Assembly: GCA_964201005.1 (NCBI GenBank)
Contig: CAXNCS010000003.1
Span: 71,180 to 135,179 of the forward strand
Length of the DNA: 64,000 bases
DNA from: Myxococcota bacterium
Lineage (GTDB): Bacteria; Myxococcota_A; UBA9042
Reading direction: 5' to 3'
The translations under genes were made by a program, and so were the position numbers. The notes under the pieces are model-generated. The model was not told where the DNA came from. It did not search any database and saw only the letters and a list, made by a program, of their open reading frames with translations. Position 1 is the stretch's first letter, and each line of letters begins with the position of its first letter. Below are positions 23,891-45,418 of the stretch, piece after piece.

Positions 23891-24856
23891 CTATTCCGCC
23901 GGGGCGGTGAACCAGGTCAGCGAAACGGTGACAGAAACCGGCTTGGACAAACCGGCTGAGGCGTCGTTCTTCACGTCGTCAAAGGCCGGGTAGTAGAGCT
24001 GCTGGATGTTGGCGCGCAGGGCCCAGCGCTCGGCGATGTAGAACTGCAGGTAGGTGCCCACTGAGCCAGCGGCATCAAAGCGGTACGCTGGTTCGATTAC
24101 GCCTTTCTTGGTCACACGGGTGTAAACGCCGCCGATGCCAAAGCTCAGCGCTGCGTCAAACTCGTTGAGGCCCGTGCCAAAAAAGCTGAACTTACCGTGC
24201 ATCAAGTTCCAGTCGACGCCCGCCGTCGTGTAGGCCTGCAGCGTCTGCGGCAACCGCACGTTCAGCTCAAAGCCGTCGGGGCGCTTCGACTGCAGCTTGT
24301 CGCGCAAGGATGTCGGCTGATCGTAGGTGTAGGCACCCTGGACGTGCAGCGCAAGGTCTTCAGAGAAATAGTAATTGTAGCCCACGCCGCCGGTGATGTA
24401 GGTCCAGAAGTCGTCGTTGGGCACCACGCCGCCCAAGAAGGAGACGCTGTGGCGGCCTTCCTTGATGACCGCGCGCTTCTGGATCACTTTGATGTCGCGG
24501 CGCTTGGCCCACTCCATCCGCGCTCCAGGGGGCACCGCGTCGTCGCCGACACCGTAGATGTCTTGGTCGCCGGTTTCGCCCATGAGGTCAGGGGCTTTGC
24601 CTTTGTCCCCGCCCTTGTCCGCTGCCGGCTTTGGCTCGGCTTTTGGCGTTTCAGCTGCGGGGTCCTTGGCGGCGTCGGCGACTGGCGCTTCGGCCGGGGC
24701 TGTTGGATCCGCTGGCTTTTCCGCCGGGGTCTCTTGGGCCAGGGCCGGTACGGCGGCCAGGGCAGTCGCGCCCAACCACGCCGCCAGGCTCAGGCGCCCA
24801 ACCAGTGCGGATCGCCAAGAGCGCCGGGACAGGGGAGAAAGGAAGAAACTGCGCAT
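23891..24856 (-). CDS. Outer-membrane beta-barrel-type protein (321 aa) with a Pro/Ala/Lys-rich N-terminal linker; paralog of 25026-25769
   Basis: ORF 23891-24958, with the start moved to ATG 24856 (MRSFFLSPLSRRSWRSALVGRLSLAAWLGATALAAVPALA/QE). After the linker, amphipathic beta-strand patterning is shared with the neighbouring gene: FLGGVVPNDDFWTYITGGVGYNYYFSEDLALHVQ, NLMHGKFSFFG..FDAALSFGIGGVY, GTYLQFYIAERWALRANIQQLYYP. Confidence 0.7.
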   Translation of the reverse strand: MRSFFLSPLSRRSWRSALVGRLSLAAWLGATALAAVPALAQETPAEKPADPTAPAEAPVADAAKDPAAETPKAEPKPAADKGGDKGKAPDLMGETGDQDIYGVGDDAVPPGARMEWAKRRDIKVIQKRAVIKEGRHSVSFLGGVVPNDDFWTYITGGVGYNYYFSEDLALHVQGAYTYDQPTSLRDKLQSKRPDGFELNVRLPQTLQAYTTAGVDWNLMHGKFSFFGTGLNEFDAALSFGIGGVYTRVTKKGVIEPAYRFDAAGSVGTYLQFYIAERWALRANIQQLYYPAFDDVKNDASAGLSKPVSVTVSLTWFTAPAE

Positions 24857-25025
24857 TTCGAACCTCAGCAGCCGCGGCGGGCCGCCCTCTTGGCAGGGAC
24901 CTTGGGGAGCTGCGGCCGACCTCTGCAGGTGAGTCGCGGCGCTTTGGGGTCCCGTCAACCGCTCGTCTCGCGCCGGTAGGGCGGCTTGCGGCGGCGCATG
25001 GTGAAGTCGCCCGGAGGGCGGATTT

Positions 25026-25769
25026 CTACTTGCTCAAGTAGGCAAGACCGAGGGTGAACTCGGCCGGAGCCAGGAACGAGATATTGTCCTGCGGCTTGTA
25101 CAGGTACTGGCTGTATCCGAGCTGGACGTTGAGAAACCGCGACAGATAGAAGCGGAAGCCAATGCCCCAGTGCCCGCCGACCTTGATGGCATTGACGGGC
25201 TCCTTGTTGCCGCGCGACTCGTCAACGTCGACGTTGATCACGCCCACGCCGCCCGAGAAGTTCACGTCAAAGCTGGTCAGCTTCTTGTCAAAGATGCCCC
25301 ACTTGCCGTGAAAGGGCGTGTAGACCAGGTCCAGCGCGCTCGTCCAGTTCATCTTGGGCGCGGCCTGGGCGCCCCGGGTCAGGACGTTGCAGCTGCCGCC
25401 GCTCGCTGGCACGCACTTGAGGAAGGTGAGGATGTTGGAATCCTCGGCCATGAGGTACTGGAAGCCGCCCTGCAAGGCCAGGGTGTCCGCCAGGTAGTAC
25501 GCCACCCGACCGCCCGCCGTGTAGAACAGGTAAAAGTTGTCGTTGGGGATGGTGCCGAGCTGCACCGAGCCTTCAAAGCCGCCCTTGCGCTCGTAGAGCG
25601 GGTTGGTCAGCGACGGCACGGCCTGGTCGACGTTCCAATACTTGCCCAGCTCGCGATCGATCGGCTCGGCAGATTCTGCCGCCATGGCGGAACTCGCCAG
25701 CGCCCAGGCAGAAACCGTGATCAGGGCTGTCGCGATGGTGCGGCGCAGCGCCCGGTGCATCCAATTCAT
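25026..25769 (-). CDS. Outer-membrane beta-barrel-type protein (247 aa); paralog of 23891-24856
   Basis: GGGAGGAACAGAGG precedes ATG 25769. Signal peptide MNWMHRALRRTIATALITVSAWALASSAMA/AE. Alternating beta-strand patterning: VQLGTIPNDNFYLFYTAGGRVAYYLADTLALQG, YTPFHGKWGIFDKKLTSFDVNFSGGVGVINV, HWGIGFRFYLSRFLNVQLGYSQYLYKP, EFTLGLAYL. Confidence 0.7.
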   Translation of the reverse strand: MNWMHRALRRTIATALITVSAWALASSAMAAESAEPIDRELGKYWNVDQAVPSLTNPLYERKGGFEGSVQLGTIPNDNFYLFYTAGGRVAYYLADTLALQGGFQYLMAEDSNILTFLKCVPASGGSCNVLTRGAQAAPKMNWTSALDLVYTPFHGKWGIFDKKLTSFDVNFSGGVGVINVDVDESRGNKEPVNAIKVGGHWGIGFRFYLSRFLNVQLGYSQYLYKPQDNISFLAPAEFTLGLAYLSK

Positions 25770-25938: not shown

Positions 25939-27930
25939 TCAGCCCTTGCAGACGCCGTCGCACTTGCCGTCGGCTTTGCACGTCCCGCCGCAGCACTTGC
26001 CCTTGCCGTCCGCGCCACAGGGCAGCAGATCCGGCGACGGGTCCGCCACGCACTCGCCCGCGGGGCTGCAGTGGTTGGCTCCGCAGGGATCGCTGCCGCC
26101 GCAGTCGGCGTCGCTGGCGCAGGACAAGTGGAAGATCATGCGGCGATCGCGTGAACCGTCCTGGGTGAACTGCCACTCTTTCTCGTTCTTGAACACTTCT
26201 TTGAGGCTGCTAAACACCGTGGACTGCATGGTCATTTTGCCGCGCATGGCGGTGACGGCGCCCTTCTTGACCGAATCGTCTTTGAAGCGATTGTCCATAA
26301 AGCCAACGCGCCAGTTGCCGGCCAGGGTGTAGCGCACCATGGCGATCGAGCGGCTCATGGCGTCTTGGAACGGGGTCGGGTCCTTGTTGTTCATGTCCAA
26401 GGTGTTGATGAACTGATAGGTGCCTTCCGTGCGGCAAGCGAGGTCCTGCAGAAACGCGTCCGGCTGCGGGTGGGTCTTGGACTGCACTTGGACGACGTGG
26501 AGGCGCACCGGGAACTTGTCGTCGTGCATGACCTGCAGCAACGCCTTGTAATCGGTGGTGATCATTGCGCACTGCTTGCGGCAGTCGCCGCCCTTGCCAA
26601 CCTTGGGATCGACAAATTGGTACAGGTCCGAATAGGTGCAGCTGTCCGGGCCGTCGGTCAGAAGAACGATGTGCCGAGGCGCGCCCGCTCCCAGGTCTTT
26701 GTCGCGCAGGAAGGTGTACGCCGTGTTCAGGGCCTCATACACCGGCGATCGCCCCGTGGCGGCCTCGCGGATGCGCTCTTCCAGACCCAGGCGGTTCTGC
26801 GCCTTGACCTTGTCGGAGCTGCCAAAGCACTTCACCATCTGCTCAGGCTGAGAAAGATTGGCAAAAGAGTCATTGGCAAAGGACGGATCGGCGGCGCACT
26901 GATAGTTGCCCTTGTTGCCGTCCGGGTCGACCAGATCTTTGCAGTCCGCGTTGCTGATGCAGGACTTGGTCGTGACCTCGTTGACGGTGCCGTCGGTGTA
27001 CTGGCAGCGCAGGTCGTCGGTGCACGCCACGCGCACGCCGTCGTTGCTCTCGTCGTAGTACATCGTCAGCACGCGATCGCGGGGATTGAGCGTATCGATG
27101 AGCTGTTGGGCGCCAGCGACGAGCACGCTGTAGCGGTCCGACGAGCACTCCGGGAATGAATCGGGCGTCCACTTGCCGGGCATATCCTCAATGAACTTGC
27201 TGGCCGTGGTGCAGTCGCCGGTGTCGGTGTAGACAAAGCCGTCTGTCGATCCGCTGTGGTCCACGAGGATCGCGACGTTCTGGAAAGTTTCCTTGCGATC
27301 GGGGTCGCACCGATCCGGGGCAACCGCCTTGTATTTAAGGGCCTTGCCCGTACCGCCGGAGCCTTCAGCCGAAGTGCTGCACGTCGCCGGATCTTGGATC
27401 CCAGCGCGCGGCTCATAGCAGCCCAAGTCGAGCTCAAAGTTCGCGGGCGAGATCGTCTGAAGCGCCGGATCGGTGGTGACCGGCTGCTGCTCGATGCGAT
27501 CGCCATCGCGAATGCCCAGATCGACGTCGCCCTCGCACTTGGGGCTCGTGACCTTGAGCTCGGTCGACACGAGGTTGACCGTCAGCTCGACGCCGTTCGC
27601 TTCCAGTACCGGTTCTCCGTCAGCCAGTGGCGCGCCGCAAACCCGGGTCACCGTCTTCGTCTGGGCGTTGACGAACGCCGGAAAGGCCGAGACGACTTGG
27701 ACTTTGTCGAAGATCAAGTTGTCCAGGCCAAAACGCGCGGTCGAGTCGCAGCTCGACAGGCCGCCGGTGATCAACCAAGCGGTGCCAAGGAGCGCGCTCG
27801 CGATCGTCGCCGGGACCCCAAGGCGTCCGCGCGGCTGTCGCGGTGCGGAATCTTGGCCTTGATCTGGGCGGCGCTTAGGGAATTGGGCCTGCGCGTTGGA
27901 ATCGACCTGCGGCTGGGACTGGATGGGCAT
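25939..27930 (-). CDS. 663-aa lipoprotein with a vWA domain and a Cys-rich C-terminal module
   Basis: GAGAGG lies upstream of ATG 27930. Lipobox LITGGLSS/CDS after a charged N-region. The vWA MIDAS-type motif is NVAILVDHSGSTDG, with later RHIVLLTDGPDSC. About 40 Cys overall. The C-terminus reads CASDADCGGSDPCGANHCSPAGECVADPSPDLLPCGADGKGKCCGGTCKADGKCDGVCKG. Confidence 0.85.
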   Translation of the reverse strand: MPIQSQPQVDSNAQAQFPKRRPDQGQDSAPRQPRGRLGVPATIASALLGTAWLITGGLSSCDSTARFGLDNLIFDKVQVVSAFPAFVNAQTKTVTRVCGAPLADGEPVLEANGVELTVNLVSTELKVTSPKCEGDVDLGIRDGDRIEQQPVTTDPALQTISPANFELDLGCYEPRAGIQDPATCSTSAEGSGGTGKALKYKAVAPDRCDPDRKETFQNVAILVDHSGSTDGFVYTDTGDCTTASKFIEDMPGKWTPDSFPECSSDRYSVLVAGAQQLIDTLNPRDRVLTMYYDESNDGVRVACTDDLRCQYTDGTVNEVTTKSCISNADCKDLVDPDGNKGNYQCAADPSFANDSFANLSQPEQMVKCFGSSDKVKAQNRLGLEERIREAATGRSPVYEALNTAYTFLRDKDLGAGAPRHIVLLTDGPDSCTYSDLYQFVDPKVGKGGDCRKQCAMITTDYKALLQVMHDDKFPVRLHVVQVQSKTHPQPDAFLQDLACRTEGTYQFINTLDMNNKDPTPFQDAMSRSIAMVRYTLAGNWRVGFMDNRFKDDSVKKGAVTAMRGKMTMQSTVFSSLKEVFKNEKEWQFTQDGSRDRRMIFHLSCASDADCGGSDPCGANHCSPAGECVADPSPDLLPCGADGKGKCCGGTCKADGKCDGVCKG

Positions 27931-28386: not shown

Positions 28387-30789
28387 ATGACGTCCTCTCT
28401 CTCCCTGCGGACCTCCACCCCGGTTCGATTTCGGGATGTGCTTGCTGGATCGGCGACGACGCTGCGGGCGACGCTGCTCGTGGGCGCTTCGCTGGTTGCA
28501 GCAGCGTGCAGCGACCCTGCGACCGGCACGAACACCGGCACGGGGGCCTCTGCGTGCCTCAACGGCGTGACCGCGGACTGCCGGCCGATCGCCGACATCA
28601 AGTCCGAGACGGCCAACATTGGCCAGGTCAATTCGGAGCAAAGCAAGCTCAGCGGCAACCTGGTCCTGGACGTCGGCGGCGTGGCCCTCAAGGAAAAGTC
28701 GTACCGCACGGTGACCTTGAGCAACTCGGGGAACGTCATTCTTCCGGCTGGTTACAAGATCCGCTCGGTCAGGATGCAGTACGACGCGCAAAATCCGGAA
28801 GAGACCGACATCAAGGCGTTGGAGTGCTGGGACGTATCCGAGACCGTGCCGTGCGACAAGCTCGACAAGGTTTGGAAGACCGTGGCGCCCAAGGGCTACA
28901 CCATCAAGGACGCCGACAAGAGCTGGATGACTTCCGGTGAGTCGTTCGTCATCAAGTACACGGCATTCGACAACAAGGTGCGCACCGGAACTGTGCTGGT
29001 CGAGCTCCAGGGGATCTCCGCGCAGGTGCTGACCTTCTCGATCAACATCAGCACCAAGGCCGGTTCGCCCAAGGCCAATCTCCTTCCGCCGTCGGTCAAC
29101 TACCCCTACGTCAAGCCCAAAGAGTGCGCTACCGAAGTGGTCAAGATGGCCAACACCGGCGACGCCGTGCTCAACATCAGCCAGATCAACCTCTCGGGCG
29201 TCGACAAGTCCTTCCAGATGCGCCTGGTCAAGCCGGAAGACCTCGATACCGAGTGGCACGAAGGCGGGGCGATGTGGACTCTGCCGGCGCCGCTGTCGAT
29301 CAAGCCGTCGAACAGCGCCGACTTTGAGGTCAAGTTCTGCCCGGCCGACGACAAGAAGAAGCAGGGCCAGATCAAGTTCATCGGCAACGACTCTTCGGCT
29401 CCCTCGCTCACGGTGCAGGCCAACAGCTCGGTCCCTTGCATCCAGGTGCTGCCGCCGACGATGAATTTTGGCGGCGCTATCCCGGGTTCTGAGAGCCCGA
29501 TGGATCTGACCATCAAGAATTGCGGCTCTCAGGAGCTGGTGGTGACGGACTTTGTGCTGACCGAGGACACCCAAGACGCCAACCAAGAGTTCTTTATCGA
29601 CCAAACCCCGCTCGCGGCGACCGGCAAAGTCAAAGCGCCGCCGCCGATTTCGGTTGAAAATCCGCTGGTTTTGGGGATCAATGAGCTTGCTGTGGTGACG
29701 GTGAAGTACGCGCCGGCCGACATCTCCAAGGAGAATACCCCCGACACCGGCGAGATTACCGTGGTGTCGAGCGCGTATATCCAGCCCAAGGTGAAGTTGT
29801 CGGGTATCGGCGTCGAGCAGACCTGCCCCATCGCCAAGGTCAAGGTGGCTGAGGGCGAAGAGGTGGTGCCGCAGACCAACTTGCACCTCAACGGCTCTAG
29901 CTCGCTGGCCCCCGGCGGCGGCACCATCAAGAAGTACAAGTGGACGGTCAAGCAGCCGACGGGCTCGAACCAGCCGTTGCTGCCAAGCGCGACTTTTCCC
30001 AACCCCACCTTGCAGGCCAACACGGCGGGCGAGTACGAGTTCTGCCTAGAGGTGTGGGACCAGAACGACGTCAAGTCGTGCGTGCCCGCGTGCACCACCG
30101 TGCTGGTGATCCCCAACAATGCGATCCACGTGGAATTGCTCTGGGATACGCCTTCCGACCCCGACCAGACCGACACGGGCCCGGCCGCTGGCGCCGACCT
30201 CGACCTGCACTTTGCCCATCCGCTGGCTGCGGCCCTCGACATCGACTGCGACAAGTCGGGCGATCCTTGGTTCAGCAACCCCTGGGACGCGTTCTGGTTC
30301 AACCCCAATCCGGCCTGGGGCGCGGCGCCGATCAGCGACGATCCCAGCCTGGACTTGGACGACACGGACGGTGCGGGCCCAGAAAACCTGAACATCGAAG
30401 AGTCGGAAGGCTCGCTGGAAGACCCGGTCTCGTACTCGGTGGGCGTGCACTACTGGAACGACCACGGCTACGGCACCTCCTATGGCACGGTGTCGATCTA
30501 CTTGCAGGGCGGCCTGGCGCTGCAGTTCACCAAGGTCAAGTTGGACCCGCTGGACATGTGGTACGTGGGCAAGCTGAACTGGCCCAACACCATGAGCGGT
30601 GGCCCCAAGAAGCCGTTTGACACCTGCTACCAGACCGGTGCGCCCTTGGTGGCGGACGGCGGCAAGTGCGCATCTGGCCAGAGCGCGATGTGGCAGCCCA
30701 AGGGCGAGTGGTGCGTGACCAAGTGCTATGAAGACAAAGCGTTTGTCCAGTCCGTCGGTGGCGCGGCGGCGGCTTCCTGCAAGAAGTGA
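28387..30789 (+). CDS. Ig-repeat lipoprotein, paralog 2 (conserved C-terminal 'DLDLH / DDTDG.GPEN / VGVHYW' domain plus an extra Cys-containing tail)
   Basis: ORF 28288-30789, with the start moved to ATG 28387 (AGGAG upstream; ..LLVGASLVAAA/CSD lipobox). It has Ig-like repeats (MNFGGAIPGSESPMDLTIKNCGSQELVV) and a PKD-like segment (KKYKWTVKQPTGS..ANTAGEYEFCLEVWD). The C-terminal domain reads IHVELLWDTPSDPDQTDTGPAAGADLDLHFAHP..SGDPWF..DDPSLDLDDTDGAGPENLN..YSVGVHYWNDHGYG..VSIYLQG..DMWYVGKLNWP. Confidence 0.85.
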   Translation: MTSSLSLRTSTPVRFRDVLAGSATTLRATLLVGASLVAAACSDPATGTNTGTGASACLNGVTADCRPIADIKSETANIGQVNSEQSKLSGNLVLDVGGVALKEKSYRTVTLSNSGNVILPAGYKIRSVRMQYDAQNPEETDIKALECWDVSETVPCDKLDKVWKTVAPKGYTIKDADKSWMTSGESFVIKYTAFDNKVRTGTVLVELQGISAQVLTFSINISTKAGSPKANLLPPSVNYPYVKPKECATEVVKMANTGDAVLNISQINLSGVDKSFQMRLVKPEDLDTEWHEGGAMWTLPAPLSIKPSNSADFEVKFCPADDKKKQGQIKFIGNDSSAPSLTVQANSSVPCIQVLPPTMNFGGAIPGSESPMDLTIKNCGSQELVVTDFVLTEDTQDANQEFFIDQTPLAATGKVKAPPPISVENPLVLGINELAVVTVKYAPADISKENTPDTGEITVVSSAYIQPKVKLSGIGVEQTCPIAKVKVAEGEEVVPQTNLHLNGSSSLAPGGGTIKKYKWTVKQPTGSNQPLLPSATFPNPTLQANTAGEYEFCLEVWDQNDVKSCVPACTTVLVIPNNAIHVELLWDTPSDPDQTDTGPAAGADLDLHFAHPLAAALDIDCDKSGDPWFSNPWDAFWFNPNPAWGAAPISDDPSLDLDDTDGAGPENLNIEESEGSLEDPVSYSVGVHYWNDHGYGTSYGTVSIYLQGGLALQFTKVKLDPLDMWYVGKLNWPNTMSGGPKKPFDTCYQTGAPLVADGGKCASGQSAMWQPKGEWCVTKCYEDKAFVQSVGGAAAASCKK

Positions 30790-30981
30790 CCCCGCGGCAT
30801 GGGATCGCGCGGTCTGCCAGTTCTAGGGCGTCACCAGGCGATCCGCGGTCTTGAGAAGAGACAATCCGTTCGATTTGTTGTGCGGGCCTCGCCGCGAAAC
30901 CGCATCGGTGATCTCGGCGACCCACTTAGCAGCGCAAGGGGCAGCCTCAAGCCGTACAGGCGGTCGCCCCGAGGATAGGCC

Positions 30982-33342
30982 ATGAGCGACAGCCTCTTTC
31001 AGCCGCGCCCCGCCCTCAAGGGTCGGAAAGCGTCGGGTTTGACAGGTTTTTTGCGGATTGCCGCCGCAGTAACCCTGTGGGCGGGCCTCAGCAGCTGCAG
31101 CGACGGGACGGACAACGGCGGCGCAGACGCGGCCACCAGCGCCGACGGCAGCAAGGTCAAGTGCAGCTTTGACAACGCCCAGGTCGGCATCGATCGTTCG
31201 GCGCAGTTTGCGGTCAATCTGTATGGCGGCGCGGCGGTCGATGAGGCCAAGCCGATCGCCATCAACAGCGGCACCATTGCGGTGGGGGCGACGGCCGATA
31301 TCTCGCTGGAAATCAAGAATACCGCCAACCTGGCCAGTGCCGCCGAACTGCTGGTGAGCAAGATCAACGTCGTCTACAGCGGCGACGACGGGGCCTTTGA
31401 CTGCCTCGTAGCCGACAAGGACGGCAAGGCGTTGATGGCCGACGGAAAGACGGTGGCGTGCAGCGGATACGATTTTGGCTCGATTGTCCCCGCGGGCTTT
31501 GACCCGGCGTGCGTGAGCAAGGCAGCGAGCACTGCTGGGCGATTCCTCATTCGCTTCAAGAAGATCGACAGCACCGCCCGCTCGGCCAAGGTGGTGGTCG
31601 TGGCCAGCGGCGATACCAGCCGGACCACGGTGACGCTGCAATTGGAGGCCAAGGCCGGCAAGGCCACCATCAATGTGAGTCCAGATCCGCTAGATTTTGG
31701 CGTGGTTGGCGTGGACGGCCCGGGCAAGGCCCAGCAGCTGAACGTGACCAACATCGGCGATGCCGACCTGGAGCTGAGCGGGGTGCAATGGAGCGTGAGC
31801 GACGCCTCATTCACCATGGAAATCGGCGGCCAAACGGTCAAGGGCAATGCCGACGGCAAATTTGCCCCGCCCCTGGTCGTGCCCGCCAAGAAGTCGCTGG
31901 CGGCGAGCATCACTTTTGATCCCGTGGACGACAAAGGCCGCGAGACCACCGTGACCTTCCTGCACAGCGCCACAAGCGGCAAGGCCAGTGCGCTGCTCAA
32001 AGGCAACCTGGAAGTGCCGTGCGTGCTCGTCAAGCCCGAGAAGAAGCTCGACCTGGGCATCGTTTACGTGGGCCAGACGGCGACCAAGAATGTGGTGCTG
32101 GAGAATTGCGGGACGGTCGAAGTTGAGGTGTCTGGCCTGAGCCTCAGCGAGGATGAGCAAAGCGTTTTTGGCTTTGGCGGCAACTTGATCGCGCCGACGC
32201 CGACCTCGCCCATCAAGATCGCCAAGAACGGTAAGGCGACCGTGCCGGTGACCTGCGCGCCGCCGAGTGAGAACAAGACGCCGCAGGGCGAGCAGAAGCC
32301 CTTTACCGCCAAGCTGAACCTCAGCGACAATACGACAAAGCCCAATAAAGTGGTGGATGTGCAGTGCTATGGCACCGCGGCGACGTGCCCAACGGCGGTG
32401 ATTGTGCCGGACCCGGGCGAGCAGATCGAGCCGCAGCAGAAGCTCTGCCTCAAGGGCTCCAGCTCGTTTGCCGCACCGGGAAAGCAGGTCAAAAAGTACA
32501 AGTGGAAGCTGCTGAGCGCGCCCAAGGGTGCGACAGCCCTCAAGTTTGCCCCCAATGATGTGTCGGCGGATGTCTGCTTTGGCACGGACACCGTCAATCC
32601 CAAGACCGGTGCGACCGAGCTGAGCGTGAATATCGCCGGCGAATACGTATTTGAGTTGCAGGTTTGGGATGATGTGGGGACGGAGTCGTGCAAAGTGAGC
32701 CAGATGCCGGTGTTGGTGATCCCGAGCATGGGGCTGCACATCGAGCTGCTGTGGGATACCCCGGCGGATGAGGAAAAGGACACGGGGCCCACCGCCGACG
32801 GCAGCGACCTGGACTTGCACCTGGTGCACCCCATGGCGTACGACGCAAAAACCTGTGACGCGACCACGACAAAGGCGTGTCAGCCGGATCTGGACAAGGA
32901 CGGCAAGACCGACCCGTGGTTCAATTCGGTGTACGACTGCTACTGGTACAACAACACCAATCAGTGGGGCAGCACGTCGTCGGCGGATAATCCAGGGCTC
33001 GACTTGGACGATACCAACGGCTGGGGCCCAGAGAACATGAACATGCAGGCGCCAGAAGACGGCCTAAAGTACGGCGTGGGTGTGCATTATTGGGACAAGC
33101 ACGGCCTTGCTCCGGACGACACCACCGCCACGGTCAACATTTACGTCCTCGGCATGCTCAAGGGGACATTCACCCAGATGATGCACGAATGCGACATGTG
33201 GTGGGTCAAGCAGGTTGCGTGGCCCACTGGCGATCTCCTTGATTTTGGCGGAGCGAGCACCACGGCGACGGGCAAGGTGACCCCCAAATACTGGAGCATT
33301 CTGGGCAGCACACTGGGTGGCGTCTGCAGCAAGCCCAAATAG
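30982..33342 (+). CDS. Ig-repeat lipoprotein, paralog 3 (same C-terminal domain)
   Basis: GAGGA precedes ATG 30982. Lipobox TLWAGLSS/CSDG. Ig-like repeats (LDFGVVGVDGPGKAQQLNVTNIGDADLEL; LDLGIVYVGQTATKNVVLENCGTVEVEV) and a PKD-like segment (KKYKWKLLSAPKG..NIAGEYVFELQVWD). The C-terminal domain reads LHIELLWDTPADEEKDTGP..GSDLDLHLVHP..DLDKDGKTDPWF..DNPGLDLDDTNGWGPENMN..YGVGVHYWDKHG..VNIYVLG..CDMWWVKQVAWP. Confidence 0.85.
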   Translation: MSDSLFQPRPALKGRKASGLTGFLRIAAAVTLWAGLSSCSDGTDNGGADAATSADGSKVKCSFDNAQVGIDRSAQFAVNLYGGAAVDEAKPIAINSGTIAVGATADISLEIKNTANLASAAELLVSKINVVYSGDDGAFDCLVADKDGKALMADGKTVACSGYDFGSIVPAGFDPACVSKAASTAGRFLIRFKKIDSTARSAKVVVVASGDTSRTTVTLQLEAKAGKATINVSPDPLDFGVVGVDGPGKAQQLNVTNIGDADLELSGVQWSVSDASFTMEIGGQTVKGNADGKFAPPLVVPAKKSLAASITFDPVDDKGRETTVTFLHSATSGKASALLKGNLEVPCVLVKPEKKLDLGIVYVGQTATKNVVLENCGTVEVEVSGLSLSEDEQSVFGFGGNLIAPTPTSPIKIAKNGKATVPVTCAPPSENKTPQGEQKPFTAKLNLSDNTTKPNKVVDVQCYGTAATCPTAVIVPDPGEQIEPQQKLCLKGSSSFAAPGKQVKKYKWKLLSAPKGATALKFAPNDVSADVCFGTDTVNPKTGATELSVNIAGEYVFELQVWDDVGTESCKVSQMPVLVIPSMGLHIELLWDTPADEEKDTGPTADGSDLDLHLVHPMAYDAKTCDATTTKACQPDLDKDGKTDPWFNSVYDCYWYNNTNQWGSTSSADNPGLDLDDTNGWGPENMNMQAPEDGLKYGVGVHYWDKHGLAPDDTTATVNIYVLGMLKGTFTQMMHECDMWWVKQVAWPTGDLLDFGGASTTATGKVTPKYWSILGSTLGGVCSKPK

Positions 33343-33351
33343 GATCAGCAC

Positions 33352-35574
33352 ATGGCCAAGAAGATCGTTCGGCGCGGCGGTTGGGGCAGGGCGGTCGGCG
33401 GTCTGGCCGTCGCGGCGCTCTTAGCAGGCCTTCTGGGCTGTGGAGAGGAGGCCGAAAATCCTTCCGGAGCCTGTAGCGCAAGCACAAGCATCGATAGGTC
33501 GGCGGCGCTGGCGGTCCGGGACAGTGCGGGCTCAGCGGCAGTTGGGCAATACGACTTTGATGTCTCGGCCCTGGGTGTTGGGGCGGTCAAGGAGTTTAGC
33601 TTTCAGATCGCCAATACTGCAGCCGCGGTGGCGGCGCTTCCGCTCCGGGTCAAGTCTGCGCAAATACAGGAATTTGACAACGCCGGGCAGCCCATCGCCG
33701 CCAGCCAGTTTGCCTGCGTCGGGCCTGGGGACAAACCCTGTGACCAAGCGAAGTGGCCCGAGGTGGTTCCGGCCGGCTTCGATCCCGCGTGTGCGGAGGC
33801 CGGAGCTGTCAATTCAGCCGCCTTTAAGGTGCGCTATTCCCGGCCGGCGGCACCAGCCGTGCGCTCGGCTCAATTGACTTTGGTCTTTGAGGGTGACGTC
33901 AAACAAGGGGCGACTCCGGTGGTCCTCAAGTTCGGCGCCCGGCTCGGCTCGCCAAAACTCAGCTGTAATCCGCCTGGTTACGATTTTGGCAAGGTCAACT
34001 TGGCCGATGCCGCGTCCACGACCGTGGTTTGTGCCAACACCGGCAAGGCTGAAGCGGTGATCACCCAGGCCAAAATGCTGGGCTCCCTTCCTCTGCTCGC
34101 AAAACTCGGCGGCCACGTGGTGCAAGCGGCTGCCGCGCTCCCGGAAGGTACCCAGGTTGTGGTGCCCGCCGGTTCGACCCTGCCGATCAATGTCTGGTTT
34201 GAGAAACTGCCCAATGAGCAAAAAATGGAGGCCATCCTGCGGCTCGGCACCAATGACCCGACCAAACCGCAGGTGGACCTGAGCTTTACGGTGAATGCGA
34301 CCGGGCCGTGTCTTTCGGCAACGCCTGCGAGCCTGGATTTTGGCGAGCAGCCGCCGGGGGTCCAGGTCAAGAAAGAGGTGCAGATCAAGTCGTGCGGCAC
34401 AGAGGATCTGAAGATCAGTTCGGTTGTCATCGGTGGCGCCGCCGAGCAGGGCTTTGGCGTCTCGCTGGCGACCACTTGCTTTGACGGCAAGGCGCCGACC
34501 GCGGACGCGCCATTGCTCATCCCCAAGGGCGAATCGTGCTCATTATTCGTCACCTACACCGCGCCTCAGCTGGGGGCCGTCAGTGTGGGCTCCTTGGAGA
34601 TCGACAGCTCAGCGGGCAAGAAGAGCGTGGCACTTCAAGGCGCTGGGGCTGCAAGTGTGGCGTGCCCCAAGGCCTGTATGTCTCTGCAGATCAAGGGGGG
34701 CGGGCCGATCAAAGGCGCGGTGGTGCCGCAGACGGAGGTGCAGCTCGACGCCAGCTGCTCGACGCCGGCCAATCAGCCAATCGCCAAGTGGAAGTGGAGT
34801 GTTCAGCAGCCCGCAGGAAGCTACTCCGTACTTGCGCCTTCGGATGCGGCCAAGGCCCCGACATTTCAGCCTAATATTGCAGGAAAGTACACATTTTCGC
34901 TCGAGATCGCCGACGAAATCGGCACCCCCGGCTGTGCGGCTGCGAACTACGAGCTGATGGTCATTCCGGACGACAAATTGCACGTCGAACTGACATGGGA
35001 CACTGCGGCCGACGGCAACAAGACCGATGTGGGCGACAAGGATGGCAAGCTAACCGATGGTAAATACGCCGGATCAGACATGGATCTGCACCTCGCGCAT
35101 CCGGACGCCCTGGACCAGCCCGGACAGGCCGATCTCGACAAGGATGGCTCGCCGGAACCGTGGAACGCCACCTGTTACGATTGTTTTGTGCTCAACACCC
35201 TGCCGCAATGGGGCGATCTGAGCGACTACGACGACGACGCCACCCTGGATCGCGACGACAAGGACGGCTGGGGGCCAGAGAACATCAATCTTTTCTTGCC
35301 GGAACCGGCAGTTCAGTACTTTGTAGGCGTCTATTACTGGTCGGCGAACGGCTTTGGCAAGTCGACACCCACGGTGCGGATCTACTTGGACGGGCAGTCT
35401 TCGCCGTTTGTGGTCAAGACCGGGCCGCTGATGGCGCAAGGCGAGCTTTGGTGTGCCGGCCGGGTGAGCTGGAAGCCGAGCGCGGTGATTCCTTGCAAGA
35501 ATGCAGATGCACAAGGAAATTTGCTGCACAAGGCCGTGCCGCTGCCGTCGCCCGCTGCCCTGAAGTGCAAGTAG
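33352..35574 (+). CDS. Ig-repeat lipoprotein, paralog 4 (same C-terminal domain)
   Basis: ATG 33352 lies 9 nt after the previous stop, with AGGA upstream. Lipobox LLAGLLG/CGEE. Ig-like repeats (YDFGKVNLADAASTTVVCANTGKAEAVI; LDFGEQPPGVQVKKEVQIKSCGTEDLKI) and a PKD-like segment (AKWKWSVQQPAGS..PNIAGKYTFSLEIAD). The C-terminal domain reads LHVELTWDTAADGNKTD..GSDMDLHLAHP..DLDKDGSPEPW..DDDATLDRDDKDGWGPENIN..YFVGVYYWSANGFG..VRIYLDG..GELWCAGRVSWKP. Confidence 0.85.
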   Translation: MAKKIVRRGGWGRAVGGLAVAALLAGLLGCGEEAENPSGACSASTSIDRSAALAVRDSAGSAAVGQYDFDVSALGVGAVKEFSFQIANTAAAVAALPLRVKSAQIQEFDNAGQPIAASQFACVGPGDKPCDQAKWPEVVPAGFDPACAEAGAVNSAAFKVRYSRPAAPAVRSAQLTLVFEGDVKQGATPVVLKFGARLGSPKLSCNPPGYDFGKVNLADAASTTVVCANTGKAEAVITQAKMLGSLPLLAKLGGHVVQAAAALPEGTQVVVPAGSTLPINVWFEKLPNEQKMEAILRLGTNDPTKPQVDLSFTVNATGPCLSATPASLDFGEQPPGVQVKKEVQIKSCGTEDLKISSVVIGGAAEQGFGVSLATTCFDGKAPTADAPLLIPKGESCSLFVTYTAPQLGAVSVGSLEIDSSAGKKSVALQGAGAASVACPKACMSLQIKGGGPIKGAVVPQTEVQLDASCSTPANQPIAKWKWSVQQPAGSYSVLAPSDAAKAPTFQPNIAGKYTFSLEIADEIGTPGCAAANYELMVIPDDKLHVELTWDTAADGNKTDVGDKDGKLTDGKYAGSDMDLHLAHPDALDQPGQADLDKDGSPEPWNATCYDCFVLNTLPQWGDLSDYDDDATLDRDDKDGWGPENINLFLPEPAVQYFVGVYYWSANGFGKSTPTVRIYLDGQSSPFVVKTGPLMAQGELWCAGRVSWKPSAVIPCKNADAQGNLLHKAVPLPSPAALKCK

Positions 35575-35917: not shown

Positions 35918-36196
35918 ATGACCAAGTCCGACCTGATTGAAGTCGTCGCCCAGAAGGCCAGCCTGACCAAAGACAAGGCCGGCACCGTCGTCAACGCCAT
36001 CTTTGAACTGATGGTCGACGCGATGAAGAGCGACGAGCGCATTGAAATCCGCAACTTCGGCAACTTCACCGTGCGCAAGTACCCGCCGTACGTGGGCCGT
36101 AACCCCAAGTCGGGCAACCCGGTTCAGGTCGCTGAGAAGCGCATGCCGTTCTTCAAGGTCGGCCTCGAGCTGAAGAACCGCGTCGACGGCAAGTAA
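35918..36196 (+). CDS. ihfB: HU/IHF-family DNA-bending protein, integration host factor beta-like
   Basis: In-frame ATG 35918 within ORF 35789-36196 (GAGG upstream). MTKSDLIEVVAQKASLTKDKAGTVVNAIFELMVDAMKSDERIEIRNFGNFTVRKYPPYVGRNPKSGNPVQVAEKRMPFFKVGLELKNRVDG matches the IHF-beta pattern (MTKSELIE.., RIEIRGFGSF.., GRNPKTG.., .PHFKPGKELR.RV). Confidence 0.85.
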   Translation: MTKSDLIEVVAQKASLTKDKAGTVVNAIFELMVDAMKSDERIEIRNFGNFTVRKYPPYVGRNPKSGNPVQVAEKRMPFFKVGLELKNRVDGK

Positions 36197-36416: not shown

Positions 36417-37862
36417 ATGTCCTCCTCCGCCCAAGCCACCACCTCAGAAACCGCCTCGACCGGCGCGACCGATGCAGATCGCGCGGCGCCGATTGGCTCT
36501 CCGCACCTGCCGATCGCCCTGCCGGGGCTGCCGGTGGCGCGGATTTGCGACATTGCCCAGTTTGAAGGTCAGCGCGTGCAGATTCGCGGCTGGCTGTACA
36601 ATCGCCGCAGCAAGGGCAAGCTCCACTTTCTGCAAGTCCGCGACGGCTCGGGGATTATCCAAGCTGTGATGTTCAAGGGCGACGTCGACGAAGCCACCTT
36701 TGTCCAAGCGGATCACTTGAGCCAAGAGAGCTCGATGCTCGTCAGCGGCACGGTGCGCAAGGATGAGCGCTCGGCCATTGGCTTTGAGCTCGCGTGTGAC
36801 GGCCTAGTGCTCGTCAAGGCTGCCGACCCCGACTACCCGATCTCGCCAAAAGACCACGGCGTAGCATTTCTAATGGATCACAGGCACTTGTGGCTTCGGT
36901 CGCGGCGCCAGGCGGCGATCATCCGGGTGCGGGCGCGCATCATCAAGTCGATCCGCGACTTTTTTGACAGCCGCGGCTTTGTGCTGATGGACACTCCGAT
37001 CTTTACGCCCAACGCCTGTGAAGGCACCTCGACGCTGTTTGAGACCGAATACCACGGCCAAATGGCTTATCTGAGTCAGTCGGGGCAGCTCTACAACGAA
37101 GCCAACGCGATGGCGCTGGGCAAGGTGTACGCCTTTGGCCCGACTTTCCGCGCGGAGAAATCCAAGACCCGCAGGCATTTGACCGAGTTCTGGATGGTCG
37201 AGCCGGAGGCGGCTTACCTGGACCTGGACGGGGTGATGGAGCTGTCGGAGGACCTGCTGTGCACGATCGCCGCCGAAGTGCTGCGCGATTGCCAGGTCGA
37301 GCTCGACACGATTGACAGCATTCGCTCTGAGGCGGAAGAGCAGAAGCAACTGCTGCCGCGGCGCGAGGCGTTGGCGCGGATTCACAAGCCGTTTCCGCGC
37401 ATCGACCACCACGAAGCGGTGCGGCAGCTGCAGGCGATGGGCTCGGACATCACCTTTGCCGACGACCTGGGCGCCGATGACGAGACGCTGCTGACCCAGC
37501 AGTATCCGACGCCGATCTTTGTCAGTCGCTATCCCGCGGAAGTAAAGGCCTTCTACATGAAGCGCGATCCGGCTGAGCCTGAGCGCTCGCTGTCGGTCGA
37601 TATGTTGGCGCCAGAGGGCTACGGCGAGATCGTCGGCGGCGGCCAGCGCGAAGACGACTATGAGACGCTGCTGGCGGCCATTCGCAAGCACGGTCTGCCG
37701 CTGGAGTCGTTTGACTGGTACCTGGATCTGCGCAAGTTCGGCTCCGTGCCCCACGGCGGCTTTGGCTTGGGCGTGGAGCGCACGGTGGCCTGGGTGTGTG
37801 GTCTGCCGCATGTCCGCGAGACAATTCCGTTTGCTCGCATGATGGACCGGCTGCGACCGTAA
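36417..37862 (+). CDS. asnS: Asparaginyl-tRNA synthetase (class IIb)
   Basis: ORF 36390-37862, with the likely start at ATG 36417. It has an OB-fold N-terminus ([31 protein letters not shown]) and class II motifs [21 protein letters not shown] and [28 protein letters not shown]. The FRAE.S.T.RHL.EFWM.E signature is typical of AsnRS rather than AspRS. Confidence 0.85.
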
Positions 37863-37969
37863 CCGCGGCTCAGAGGGACGAACCGCGTCCCGGCAGAAGG
37901 CTCCCGAATCTGCGCCAAAGCGGTGGCCGCAGGCGCGATCAAAGTCGCGGGTTTGGGCGCCAGAGAAGT

Positions 37970-37998
37970 TTGACAGCGAATGCGCCGCAAGTTACGTT
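37970..37998 (+). promoter_or_regulatory. Candidate sigma70-type promoter upstream of the PP2C gene
   Basis: TTGACA (37970-37975), a 17-nt spacer, then TACGTT (37993-37998). This is a motif match only and the -10 element is weak. Confidence 0.25.
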
Positions 37999-38086
37999 CC
38001 AGCGAAGGTTCTGCGTTCCGCACCTGCGGCCCGTGGGCGGGTGGGACGGCGGACAGCGACCCAGCGCGGGTTGCCGAGGCGAGGGC

Positions 38087-39022
38087 ATGGTCAATCATAA
38101 GAAGCAGACCTCGCGCGATCCAGCCCGACCGGCGGCGGCGCGGGCTTCGGCGGGAAAAGCGCGCTTGCGCCTCGAAGTCCATGGGATGACCGATGTCGGC
38201 CTGGTCCGGGATGGCAATGAGGACGCCCTTTTGCTCCTCGGCGGCGAGCACTTGTTTGTCGTCGCCGACGGCATGGGCGGTCACTCCGCCGGTGAGGTGG
38301 CCTCCGCCTACACCATTGAAAGCATGAAAGCTTTCTACGAAAATCCCGATCTGACCAAGAGGGTGAAGGCGGCCTATCTGCGGGCTCGCAAGGCCAAGAA
38401 GGAAATTCCGCAGTCTGAGGCGTCGATGCAGGCCTTCCGGCTCAAGAAAGCCGTGGAGAGCGCCAACCTGACCGTGTTCCAATTGGCTCAGCAGCACGAG
38501 CAGTTGCGCGACATGGGCACGACGGTCGTGGCCGCCTATGTCAACGGCTCCAAGCTGCACGTGGCCAACGTCGGCGACAGCCGCATGTACCGCCTGCGGG
38601 CCGGCAAGCTGCACCAGTTGACCGAAGACCACTCGTTGCTGAATGAATACATCAAGATGAACCTGCTAGCGCCCGAGGAGATCGAGGCATTTCCGTACAA
38701 GAACGTGATTGTGCGGGCCTTGGGGCTACAGGAGGCGGTCGCGGTCGACATCTTTGGCTACACCGTCCGCTCCGGCGATCAATACCTGCTTTGCAGCGAT
38801 GGCCTGACCGATCTGGTGCGGGACGCTGAAATCCGCGCGGTGCTCGACAATGCGCCGACCGCTGCGGCGGCCTGTCACCGGCTCACGGAGCTGGCCAAAG
38901 CCCGCGGCGGGCATGACAATATCACCACGCTGCTGGTGCGGGCCCATCCCAATGACTGGGCGCCTCTGCCACCGCCGCCGCCGAGCATCGGGCCGCCCAG
39001 TGGTCCTGCGCCCACCGACTGA
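38087..39022 (+). CDS. PP2C-family Ser/Thr protein phosphatase
   Basis: In-frame ATG 38087 within ORF 37796-39022 (GAGG upstream). PP2C motifs: GLVRDGNEDA, FVVADGMGGHSAGEVAS, GTTVVAAYV, VANVGDSRMYRL, LLCSDGLTD, GGHDNITTLLVRA. It ends in a Pro-rich tail. The start could instead be the downstream MTDVG. Confidence 0.85.
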   Translation: MVNHKKQTSRDPARPAAARASAGKARLRLEVHGMTDVGLVRDGNEDALLLLGGEHLFVVADGMGGHSAGEVASAYTIESMKAFYENPDLTKRVKAAYLRARKAKKEIPQSEASMQAFRLKKAVESANLTVFQLAQQHEQLRDMGTTVVAAYVNGSKLHVANVGDSRMYRLRAGKLHQLTEDHSLLNEYIKMNLLAPEEIEAFPYKNVIVRALGLQEAVAVDIFGYTVRSGDQYLLCSDGLTDLVRDAEIRAVLDNAPTAAAACHRLTELAKARGGHDNITTLLVRAHPNDWAPLPPPPPSIGPPSGPAPTD

Positions 39023-40156: not shown

Positions 40157-40357
40157 CCGAGGCGCTTGCCAAAATGGCACACCATGGCCCCGCAGCCGGC
40201 GCAAGCTGTGCCTCTGCGTCTGCGCGGGCCGGAGCTGCTCCGGGAACAATCGACCGGGGCAACGGGGTTTGCGAAGGGCACGCGGTTGGCACGGCCCGTG
40301 CATCCTCGCATAGAGACGGCGGGACTTCTGCAAACGCGCCGCCGCGGAGTTTCTAGG

Positions 40358-44062: not shown

Positions 44063-44396
44063 GCATCCCCCTGAGCGGTTAGGCCGCACCGCCAATTCTA
44101 CCGGGCTTCCAGGGCCTGTACAGGGCAGAGGCGAATTTGTCCCGGGTTTGCCGGTCTTGCCAAAATGGCACGCACTGCCGCCGCGTCTGCCGATTGTGCT
44201 GCCAGTGCGGCGTGTCGCTGGGCAGGGTTGAAGGGGCAAAATCTCTGGATCCGCATAGTTGTCGCCGCAGCTCGCTGGCACGGGTTTTGCTCCATTGCAG
44301 GGGTGGAATGGGCGAGGCCACTGGCGCGTTGGCGCCACCGACCTCAAACGGTCGCGGTCGGGCCCAGCACGGGCGTTTGCGGTCCGCAGGAGAGCG

Positions 44397-45416: not shown

Positions 45417-45418
45417 CC

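Follow-up and report, generated by a model that had tools for sequence, protein, structure and literature searches.

Gene content of the locus

The 64 kb window, meaning the whole stretch of DNA that was analysed, comes from a clade of uncultured, mostly freshwater (lake-dwelling) Myxococcota and carries on its reverse strand a block of genes of the Glt/Nfs type. The first gene of the block (25939-27930, - strand) encodes a conserved 663 aa lipoprotein with a VWA-like region and a Cys-rich tail; its MIDAS motif is intact (DHSGS, from residue 224), the match to VWA_3 is weak (E 0.009), and it occupies the position of gltK in Myxococcus xanthus. It was not equated with CglB, as it has no NCBIfam match, and no protein of the window resembled the NCBIfam models of CglB or GltK at E<=0.01 or E<=0.1. 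Two outer-membrane beta-barrels follow on the same strand, one GltB/NfsB-like (25026-25769) and the other GltA/NfsA-like (23891-24958), scoring 71.9 and 69.2 bits respectively against TIGR04565 (OMP_myx_plus, cut-off 60). Beyond them lie the genes for a GltC homolog, a TPR protein (21858-23783; NF033756 gliding_GltC, E 6e-52, 177 bits, below the equivalog cut-off of 450), a large GltD-like TPR protein of 1189 aa (18190-21759), assigned from its size, TPR content and position, and a GltE-like TPR protein (16108-18186; NF033758 gliding_GltE, E 9e-18, below cut-off). The last is a small secreted protein of ~86 aa with a CglF-like C-terminus (15738-15998; NF033764 gliding_CglF, E 4e-10, below cut-off), and a small gene is present at the same place in two related loci (L001 and L002).

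Paired barrels of the GltA/B type, GltC and the large TPR proteins GltD and GltE together identify the block as Glt/Nfs-type. Among the larger open reading frames scanned in the window, none corresponded to aglRQS, gltG or gltJ, which may lie elsewhere in the genome, and equivalents of NfsG or NfsH were likewise not seen in the window. With motor and inner-membrane Glt genes lacking from the window, the block may serve a motility machine, or instead an Nfs-like or other transport machine. A + strand reading frame opposite gltD and gltE (16969-21171, 1400 aa) matched no family and was taken to be an antisense artefact of high GC content. A GspN-containing type II secretion system (T2SS) is also encoded nearby (44259-59932).

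Lipoprotein genes bracket the block on both sides, as had been claimed in an earlier note made from the sequence. On one side P1 (28387-30789, 800 aa), P2 (30982-33342, 786 aa) and P3 (33352-35574, 740 aa) form a + strand triplet divergent from the first gene of the block, with only 10 bases between P2 and P3. On the other, P4 (13282-15459, 725 aa), P6 (9770-13138, 1122 aa) and P5 (7710-9704, 664 aa), all on the - strand, extend the string of glt genes with short gaps, the CglF-like gene sitting between gltE and P4. Scans with Rfam and for tRNA genes revealed no feature within or near the genes, and scans for promoters and terminators gave no excess over the shuffled expectation.

Architecture of the lipoproteins

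P1-P4, whose reading frames are all present at these coordinates, are full-length paralogs: in an all-against-all BLASTP comparison they align along their entire length at 29-35% identity (E 2e-62 to 2e-102). Their common layout consists of a lipobox, a flexible tether, three Ig-like domains of the ASH/HYDIN type, a PKD domain and a C-terminal beta-sandwich of ~190 aa, here termed the CTD. In P4 the signal peptide and tether (15331-15459) are followed by the Ig-like domains D1 (14905-15330), D2 (14530-14904) and D3 (14140-14529), and then by the PKD domain (13846-14139) and the CTD (13285-13845); the CTDs of P1, P2 and P3 lie at about 30094-30786, 32704-33339 and 34948-35571.

Each signal peptide ends in a lipobox Cys (by inspection, AAAC, LSSC, LLGC and WAAC in P1-P4), which at position 21 is invariant in an alignment of 22 paralogs and orthologs. 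The residue at +2 is Ser, Gly or Ala in these 22 sequences and never Lys, which at that position is the signature of lipoproteins of the M. xanthus inner membrane (PMC3222651). The mature N-termini of the six lipoproteins begin C-SSTDNGTG, C-SDGTDNGG, C-SDDGSGYS, C-SDTADSGT, C-SDPATGTN and C-GEEAENPS. The proteins contain between 9 and 25 Cys residues, including conserved pairs, which fits an oxidising compartment.

The HYDIN/CFA65/VesB-like Ig model (PF22544, gathering score 25.5) is matched above threshold by all four paralogs, with 32.1, 33.8, 31.9 and 27.9 bits for P1-P4, and Cep192_D4 and ASH matches in Pfam are sub-threshold. The choice-of-anchor D model (NF012200, cut-off 45 bits) is exceeded by P2 (53.5), P3 (59.2) and P6 (135.3), with P1 (32.1), P4 (34.7) and P5 (30.9) scoring beneath it. 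Similarly, the K319L-like PKD model (PF22352, cut-off 27 bits) is exceeded by P1 (33.1), P3 (29.8) and P4 (33.6), and P2 falls marginally under (25.6). An AlphaFold model of full-length P4 (mean pLDDT 79.7) consists of beta structure throughout, with a disordered tether leading to five domains, and its best matches in the PDB, as found by Foldseek, are Ig arrays of the ASH/Hydin type (E 1e-21); the lipobox, Ig and PKD assignments of the earlier note were thus upheld, and the repeats are Ig-like when modelled. The resemblance, which extends to superposition on the ASH arrays of the ciliary central pair, is one of fold class and not of function, the ciliary proteins being cytoplasmic and eukaryotic. 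None of P1-P4 matched an NCBIfam gliding-protein model at E<=0.1.

P5 and P6 share the stalk and lack the CTD, as the note had also proposed: in profile comparisons each aligns in a single collinear register that runs from the lipobox across the Ig domains, with a probability of 99.1% for P6 (E 6e-19) and 95.5% for P5 (E 1e-8). The relationship of P5 is remote, this protein giving no BLASTP match to the other lipoproteins at E<=1e-3, and its C-terminal half is Cys-rich and ends in a PKD-like segment. In P6 the choice-of-anchor D Ig domains number five or more, and a putative VWA domain at the C-terminus contains an unbroken DxSxS MIDAS motif (DNSGS, from residue 821). The VWA region weakly matches the CglD model at E 2e-10 (39 bits, against an equivalog cut-off of 400), and there is a weak match to a Bdellovibrio MIDAS adhesin (E 3e-14); the paper describing the Bd0875 MIDAS adhesin draws no connection to Ig-stalk lipoproteins.

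The C-terminal domain

A tblastn search of the window with the CTD of P4 recovered exactly four copies, those of P1-P3 being 43-52% identical to that of P4, with 51 invariant columns, in keeping with the conserved C-terminal domain described in the earlier note. Each contains a loop of the DxDxDG type (DxDxDGxxDPW, for instance DYDGDGKPDPW or DLDKDGKTDPW) with a weak FG-GAP match, and the domain is taken to be an acidic, probably Ca2+-binding beta-sandwich. No model in Pfam or NCBIfam describes it, the CTD alone returning nothing relevant at E<=10. When the four CTDs and eight diverse family members were compared with Pfam DUF2135 (PF09906, 48 positions), there was again no match at E<=10, E. 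coli YfaP scoring 66 bits as a control in the same run. By contrast, pairwise hhalign comparisons of the CTD with YfaP gave probabilities of 81% (71 columns) and 85% (111 columns), at E 7e-6 to 1e-5, with the alignment reaching the C-terminus of YfaP. The two share the pattern hxhxLxWDT...DLDLH...LDxDxTxGxGPE...YxVxVxYY, and one P4 ortholog is labelled 'YfaP family protein' by NCBI. They differ in that the CTD has an insert of ~35 residues that carries the DxDxDG loop, and in that CTD genes stand in a Glt context, whereas YfaP belongs to an alpha-2-macroglobulin operon. The CTD thus appears to be a remote relative of YfaP/DUF2135. In the literature, DUF2135 is mentioned in no paper, and those on 'YfaP' assign it no function.

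A model of the CTD (pLDDT 73.6) found no usable structural match in the PDB by Foldseek (best E 0.04, TM 0.32), and a profile search of PDB sequences produced geopilin matches at chance level only, such that neither sequence nor structure gave a significant match to anything of known function. The PKD-CTD pair may resemble the PKD and collagen-binding (PPC-type) modules of clostridial collagenases, a likeness that is not claimed here.

The CTD family comprises 3,556 clusters at E<=1e-3, or 753 at E<=1e-30. The domain is always C-terminal, behind variable N-termini, and in some members the PKD-CTD pair follows very different fronts, such as extra PKD and dockerin-like repeats, or belongs to proteins of just 350-400 aa. 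Stand-alone copies exist, some among housekeeping genes, and one full-length member is located among genes for PriA and an amidohydrolase.

Conservation of the Glt linkage

Close orthologs were obtained by protein search and contig look-up. These form four clades, one for each of P1-P4, each represented in several species-level metagenome-assembled genomes (MAGs); those of P2 are P0184-P0190. An exact look-up of P2 in public assemblies retrieved no record, and a metagenome scan with P2 peptides yielded 99 pattern matches, none of them related. The order P1-P2-P3 is kept across at least eight genomes, and the same MAGs have additional P1-like copies at other places (L067 and L072 are examples).

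All 25 P4-ortholog loci with an upstream flank have the gene order gltC-D-E-(F)-P4-P6-P5, P5 following P6 in conserved fashion, and all five triplet loci with a flank have the VWA-barrel-barrel-gltC-gltD genes running divergently from the triplet. A second arrangement, found in eight more distant loci, has a single family copy divergent from the same block, followed by P6. The functional tie to the Glt/Nfs-like block put forward in the earlier note is supported by this linkage in 25/25 and 5/5 loci. Of the outcome that would have told against that note, a widespread family with no preferential linkage to such genes, half is seen: the CTD family is widespread and some of its members stand alone, but the orthologs of P1-P4 are consistently Glt-linked. 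Related loci flanked by 8 kb or more in each direction numbered 32, of which seven had neither Glt genes nor P6, and five had P6 only. Furthermore, a block of ~40 kb is syntenic as a whole, including unrelated genes for a triple-DsbA lipoprotein, an ADI-like protein, a PP2C phosphatase and an MXAN_2561/2562-like protein, and adjacency alone is consequently weak evidence within the closest clade.

Selection and age of the family

Ratios of dN/dS were calculated from ortholog pairs, the 29-35% identity between paralogs implying saturated synonymous sites. Purifying selection acts on all four genes, with dN/dS of 0.09-0.21: 0.21 for P1 (against L084), 0.09-0.14 for P2 and 0.12 for P3, the ratios against L084 being approximate since dS is about 1-1.6. 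These values lie in the range of those of the VWA protein, P5, P6 and the barrels, and are two to three times above those of GltC/D/E (0.06) and asnS (0.04), as expected for peripheral machine parts. Identity rises along the protein, from 25% between paralogs and 36% between orthologs in the membrane-proximal D1 to 44% and 71% in the distal CTD, a gradient which suggests that the head meets a conserved partner or ligand.

The earlier note had seen in the genes a family that was amplified locally and is diverging, with interchangeable cargo or adhesins among its examples of function; a recent amplification of this kind would recall loci of contingency or antigenic variation. The tandem arrangement of three same-strand paralogs, with P2 and P3 almost abutting, and the evolution of the proteins at a faster rate than the core Glt genes are consistent with recent amplification. 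However, the modest pairwise identity, with no near-identical stretches at the protein level, the separate ortholog clade of each copy, the conserved order of the triplet and the low dN/dS make such a cassette extremely unlikely. The four CTD copies are ancient and individually conserved, and therefore non-redundant; they behave as old components and not as interchangeable ones.

A candidate distal module of a Glt-type machine

Our tentative preference is to regard P1-P4 as outer-membrane-anchored accessory parts that belong to the distal adhesion/connector module of a Glt-type trans-envelope machine. Each would be held, in all likelihood in the outer membrane, by a lipid on the Cys at its N-terminus, from which a tether of ~20 residues rich in Gly, Ser, Thr and Asp would lead to a rod of three Ig-like domains bearing the conserved head, composed of the PKD domain and the putatively Ca2+-binding beta-sandwich with its remote relationship to YfaP/DUF2135. 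P5 and P6 would present other heads on the same stalk, that of P6 being the CglD-like VWA/MIDAS adhesion domain, and these six lipoproteins, along with the VWA lipoprotein heading gltB-gltA-gltC, would constitute the distal adhesion/coupling module. Within it, the four CTD copies might form one heteromeric assembly or recognise distinct ligands. We infer that P1-P4 reside in the outer membrane, are exposed at the surface, bind Ca2+ and contribute to adhesion or to the coupling of force, and they may plausibly be the adhesins or matrix components that the earlier note suggested. A functional analogy, and no more, is provided by SprB and RemA of gliding Bacteroidota, where several paralogous, rod-like, beta-rich surface proteins serve one gliding machine; these depend on the unrelated T9SS/Gld machinery, have no lipid anchor and are far larger.

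In M. xanthus, the surface-exposed VWA lipoproteins CglB and CglD couple the Glt machine to the substratum, CglD in a Ca2+-dependent manner (PMC9946355; bioRxiv 10.1101/2023.10.19.562135). Like the integrin-beta-like adhesin CglD, a large Glt-tied lipoprotein with DxDxDG Ca2+ motifs and a VWA/MIDAS domain, the proteins described here include one DxDxDG loop in each CTD of P1-P4 and a VWA region in P6 that matches the CglD model. Unlike CglD, P1-P4 have neither a VWA domain nor an array of COMP-like repeats, their Ig-PKD-CTD layout is not found in it, and the features in question are distributed over six stalk-sharing proteins. CglB and GltK are likewise lipoproteins of the outer membrane that are co-encoded with GltA/B/C or act on them, but are far smaller, at about 42 kDa and about 17.5 kDa, compared with the 725-800 residues of P1-P4.

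Rather less probable is that P1-P4 are periplasmic struts and not adhesins, the Ig rod (~18-20 nm when extended) spanning the periplasm and the PKD-CTD head docking on GltC/D/E or peptidoglycan, in place of missing platform parts of the GltK or GltH type. The tip of an adhesin is often its most variable part, and that the distal CTD is the most conserved part of P1-P4 counts against adhesion, being what would be expected of a head that binds conserved machine parts. Moreover, no gene of the GltK or GltH type could be made out in the block, P4 lies within the co-directional string gltC-D-E-F, outer-membrane lipoproteins face the periplasm by default, and GltK itself is a periplasm-facing outer-membrane lipoprotein required for the platform (PMC9946355). 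Such a location sits less easily with the adhesion domain of the stalk sibling P6, which resembles that of the surface-exposed CglD, and with evolution faster than that of the periplasmic Glt proteins. Choice-of-anchor D, PKD and VWA/MIDAS domains, going by general knowledge and the meaning of the NCBIfam name, are also typical of cell-surface or extracellular proteins. It is unlikely that P1-P4 are independent of Glt, as surface lipoproteins that bind particles or polymers or as a coat component of planktonic Myxococcota, placed near glt genes by inherited synteny or common regulation. The size of the CTD family with its differing fronts, the stand-alone and extra P1-like copies, and the synteny of the entire 40 kb neighbourhood, unrelated genes included, all accord with independence; the linkage of every flanked ortholog locus argues against it, as do the continuation of the glt string by P4-P6-P5 on the same strand and the survival of adjacency through rearrangement, P4 being downstream of gltE-F in one arrangement and the single copy divergent from the VWA gene in the other.

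The nfsA-H genes form a single operon, and the glt genes of M. xanthus are split into the G1 and G2 clusters; the contiguous A-B-C-D-E-F order on one strand would be closer to the former, and this comparison, with the absence of motor genes nearby, could make the lipoproteins accessories or cargo of a spore-coat assembly machine of the Nfs type. We consider this very improbable, given that the best NCBIfam matches are to models of the CglF, GltC and GltE type, that no counterparts of NfsG/H were seen in the window, and that the VWA/MIDAS lipoproteins (the 663 aa protein and P6) have their parallels in CglB and CglD, which are gliding adhesins. A distinctly unlikely extension of the adhesion reading is that the six stalk-sharing proteins and the VWA lipoprotein form an unrecognised surface 'foot', replacing CglB, CglD and GltK and exported via the neighbouring T2SS. 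This lead arises because Gly, Ser, Asp and Asn abound in the mature N-termini, as they do in the sorting motif of T2SS/GspN-dependent surface lipoproteins in Acinetobacter, Burkholderia and Shewanella (PMC12802150); in M. xanthus, the route by which CglB reaches the surface has yet to be established (PMC9946355).

What is understood of Glt-type gliding machines comes almost solely from M. xanthus, where outer coupling relies on CglB, CglD and GltK. Here, a clade of uncultured Myxococcota combines the conserved core of GltA-F with lipoproteins of another set, six of which share one Ig-like stalk with three kinds of head, four carrying a domain that is absent from domain libraries yet present in more than 3,500 clusters. 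Were these surface proteins unrelated to the machine, they would represent an ordinary conserved gene family; were they a T2SS-exported foot, they would reveal how gliding adhesins can be exported and would define a head domain of the Ca2+ type that is both new and widespread. If they form the distal module that we favour, they would show how the adhesive end of such a machine can be swapped in evolution, provide in the PKD and CTD a tractable module for structural and Ca2+-binding work, and serve as candidate markers by which Glt-type systems could be traced in metagenomes.

A family of lipoproteins with a common stalk

Three consecutive forward-strand genes, P1 (28387-30789), P2 (30982-33342) and P3 (33352-35574), and one reverse-strand gene, P4 (13282-15459), are all present as ORFs in the window, in which G+C content is 60-67%. 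Their products align pairwise over their full lengths with 29-35% identity (BLASTP; E 2e-62 to 2e-102), and each begins with a signal peptide and lipobox. Across the four paralogs and 18 aligned P4 orthologs the lipobox cysteine is unchanged, and residue +2 is Ser, Gly or Ala in these sequences, never the Lys that marks inner-membrane lipoproteins in Myxococcus xanthus (PMC3222651). HYDIN/VesB-type Ig domains scored above the Pfam threshold in all four paralogs and a K319L-like PKD domain in three, with that in P2 being marginal; P2 and P3 also passed the NCBIfam choice-of-anchor D model. These similarities, together with a shared C-terminal domain (CTD), confirm the common architecture ascribed to the four genes in the earlier note.

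An AlphaFold2 model of P4, generated from 22 sequences (mean pLDDT 79.7), predicts an all-beta fold consisting of a disordered signal peptide and tether (residues 1-43), three stalk domains, D1 (44-185), D2 (186-310) and D3 (311-440), the PKD domain (441-538) and the CTD (539-725), thereby supplying a domain count for P4. The best PDB matches of this model were ASH/Hydin-type Ig-domain arrays of ciliary central-pair proteins, with E values down to 1e-20, and the repeats are therefore Ig-like when modelled, as had been supposed.

Two further reverse-strand lipoproteins, P6 (9770-13138) and P5 (7710-9704), had been thought to have only the repeat region in common with the others, and in profile comparison both align collinearly with P4, starting at the lipobox and continuing across the Ig domains (probabilities of 99.1% and 95.5%, respectively). 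Beyond the stalk, P6 has further choice-of-anchor D domains and a putative C-terminal VWA domain in which the MIDAS motif is intact, weakly matching CglD and a Bdellovibrio MIDAS adhesin; the C-terminal part of P5 is different and Cys-rich. Judged by sequence, P1-P6 thus appear to comprise a wider family of one stalk and three heads. Among the paralogs, identity is 25% in D1, the stalk domain nearest the membrane, and rises to 44% in the CTD; among P4 orthologs the rise between these two domains is from 36% to 71%.

The C-terminal domain

The CTD is an unannotated head domain, present in exactly four copies in the window, in which the last ~190 residues of the paralogs align with 51 invariant columns. 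It matched no Pfam or NCBIfam model even at E <= 10 and no PDB sequence, and a separate model of the domain (pLDDT 73.6) was without a significant structural neighbour. One ortholog has been named 'YfaP family protein' by NCBI, and profile comparison of the CTD with Escherichia coli YfaP, the function of which is unknown in the literature, gave a probability of 81-85% (E about 1e-5), the two having in common the pattern LxLxWDT / DLDLH / LDxDxTxGxGPE / YxVxVxYY. As the short Pfam DUF2135 model matches YfaP but not the CTD family, the domain is treated as a putative, remote YfaP-like beta-sandwich. Unlike YfaP, the CTD contains an extra ~35-residue insert with DYDGDGKPDPW or DLDKDGKTDPW, a DxDxDG-type loop similar to Ca2+ motifs found in CglD and COMP.

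Gene content of the locus

The block between P4 and P1, which resembles the Glt gliding genes of M. xanthus, lies on the reverse strand. The product of its first gene (25939-27930), which sits in the place of gltK, is a lipoprotein of 663 aa that has a VWA-like region, the MIDAS sequence DHSGS and a Cys-rich C-terminal tail; its sole family match is a weak one to VWA_3. Next come two barrels that exceed the OMP_myx_plus cut-off, followed by a GltC homolog (E 6e-52), a 1189-aa TPR protein that is GltD-like by size and position, a GltE-like TPR protein and a small CglF-like protein. P4, P6 and P5 continue on the same strand after the CglF-like gene, and P1-P3 diverge from the gene for the 663-aa lipoprotein, such that the family does bracket the block on both sides, as first described. 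AglRQS, GltG and GltJ were not found among the scanned window ORFs. A forward-strand 1400-aa ORF (16969-21171), antisense to gltD/gltE and without a family match, was rejected as a typical spurious high-GC ORF; many similar antisense ORFs occur across the window.

Directly after P5 lies a divergent arginine-deiminase/amidinotransferase-family gene (6370-7755, reverse strand; 217 bits, cut-off 414), found in the same place in 21 related loci, which may belong to the gene string itself or modify its products. Two more genes are conserved beside P5 in 23-25 loci: one for a HEAT-repeat protein (5437-6393, forward strand) and one (3196-5277, reverse strand) for a lipoprotein-like protein of 693 aa that contains three DsbA/thioredoxin modules (Rcas_1661 family, 256 bits). 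With 9-25 cysteines each, P1-P6 would be well served by an enzyme dedicated to disulfide formation.

On the other side, P3 is followed by a small forward-strand gene for an HU/IHF-like DNA-binding protein (about 35918-36196), found also in the Logan contig L084, then by asnS and by forward-strand genes for a PP2C-type Ser/Thr phosphatase (37796-39022) and a fused MXAN_2561/MXAN_2562-like outer-membrane barrel protein (40166-42124); in 6-8 related loci the last two are likewise found 3' of the triplet. Next is a type II secretion system (T2SS) gene cluster that looks complete (44259-59932, forward strand), encoding GspC, D, E, F, a PilM-like GspL candidate and GspN. A Ser/Thr kinase gene (60666-62981) and two tandem forward-strand tRNA-Gly(GCC) genes of equal Rfam score (63167-63240 and 63370-63444) lie beyond it.

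Conservation and evolution

A profile of the four CTDs searched against 1.84 billion proteins retrieved 3,556 representative clusters at E <= 1e-3, of which 753 also pass E <= 1e-30; in these the CTD is always C-terminal and the preceding parts vary greatly in length; all named relatives are 'hypothetical proteins' of uncultured Myxococcota or Deltaproteobacteria MAGs. When a single genome was scanned for each species, 287 encoded relatives were identified, and the window proteins were compared by tblastn with the best 80 of these loci. Almost all belong to MAGs of uncultured Myxococcota or 'Deltaproteobacteria', many of them of lake origin (Erken, Baikal and Mendota, among others); for instance, the P4 side of the window has 98-100% protein identity to a 16-kb Lake Mendota Myxococcota contig (L003, JBIKTV010000085). 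Several MAG records (L012, L013, L017, L022, L030, L055, L062 and L072) are titled 'Klebsiella pneumoniae' or 'uncultured Enterobacteriaceae'; these hold a Myxococcota-type Glt cluster with 45-69% protein identity to the window, and their taxonomic labels look wrong.

Among these best 80 of 287 loci, a P4 ortholog was found in 31 species-level genomes, with gltC/gltD/gltE directly upstream in all 25 having an upstream flank and P6-P5 downstream. The P1-P2-P3 triplet retains its order in seven genomes and L084, and the VWA gene, both barrels, gltC and gltD are on the other strand in 5/5 triplet loci with upstream flank. Both sides of the cluster were found in window-like form on two contigs (L031/L054 and L030/L055). 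In eight more distant genomes, a single copy (two in L061) diverges from VWA-barrel-barrel-gltC-gltD and precedes a P6-like gene. Full-length P6, in some cases together with P5, comes after a family member in six loci where Glt genes are absent within 10 kb; the remainder, mostly short contigs, have neither Glt genes nor P6. Where at least 8 kb was available on both sides (n = 32), 20 loci had Glt genes and P6, five P6 only and seven neither. One full-length member sits among PriA, amidohydrolase and hydantoinase genes. The earlier note had envisaged that the family might prove widespread and lack preferential linkage to TPR/barrel genes: widespread it is, but the P4 and triplet ortholog loci with upstream flank are without exception Glt-linked.

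Neighbour-joining analysis of the PKD-CTD region places P1, P2, P3 and P4 in separate clades, each including several MAGs. Rather than products of a recent amplification, the copies are old, individually conserved paralogs. Further CTD-bearing tandem pairs, apart from or additional to Glt-linked copies (L067 3868-6318, L048 6169-10558 and L061 6083-10513), and at least six copies in MAG GY13CH_bin.24 indicate that family size differs between lineages.

All copies of P1-P6 are under purifying selection. Relative to L084 (73-77% identical), dN/dS was 0.21 for P1, 0.14 for P2 and 0.12 for P3, ratios that are approximate because dS is near saturation; P2 gave 0.09 relative to the related locus L085, and P4, P6 and P5 gave 0.12, 0.16 and 0.21 relative to another, L004. 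Reference values were about 0.06 for GltC/D/E, 0.04 for asnS, 0.16 for the VWA gene and 0.11-0.18 for the barrels. P1-P6 therefore evolve like other peripheral parts, faster than the periplasmic core.

Possible roles of the cluster

The functional tie to the Glt-like block originally suggested is favoured by an adjacency that outlasts a change of arrangement, although the stand-alone members and the synteny of the whole 40-kb neighbourhood counsel caution. In M. xanthus, the best comparison, the VWA lipoprotein CglB sits on the outer-membrane platform of Glt proteins (GltA/B/H/K/C; PMC9946355), and CglD, a VWA and Ca2+-binding lipoprotein, stabilises adhesion sites (bioRxiv 10.1101/2023.10.19.562135); both are surface-exposed (PMC9946355; bioRxiv 10.1101/2023.10.19.562135). 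The 663-aa lipoprotein may be the counterpart of CglB in this lineage. The main rival to an adhesion or coupling role would be an inward-facing strut from the outer membrane to GltC/D/E.

The route by which CglB reaches the surface is unknown (PMC9946355). T2SS with GspN carry lipoproteins to the surface in Acinetobacter and Klebsiella, and probably in Burkholderia and Shewanella, the exported proteins having a Gly/Ser- or Asn/Asp-rich stretch right after the cysteine (PMC12802150). The GspN-containing T2SS of the window is 9-24 kb away, starting 9 kb downstream of the triplet, and the starts of the six lipoproteins, C-S-[SD] in five and C-GEEAENPS in one, are rich in Gly, Asp, Asn, Ser and Thr. 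Surface export of P1-P6 by this system stays speculative, as Gly/Ser/Asp-rich tethers are also common among ordinary outer-membrane lipoproteins.

The feature is real and conserved, and the locus is a Glt-type cluster with an undescribed accessory lipoprotein set. Inferring function from context and architecture only, and by analogy with CglB and CglD on the Glt platform, P1-P6 and the 663-aa protein are read as a distal module for adhesion or coupling in the machine of this lineage; the CTD would be its conserved, probably Ca2+-dependent, head.
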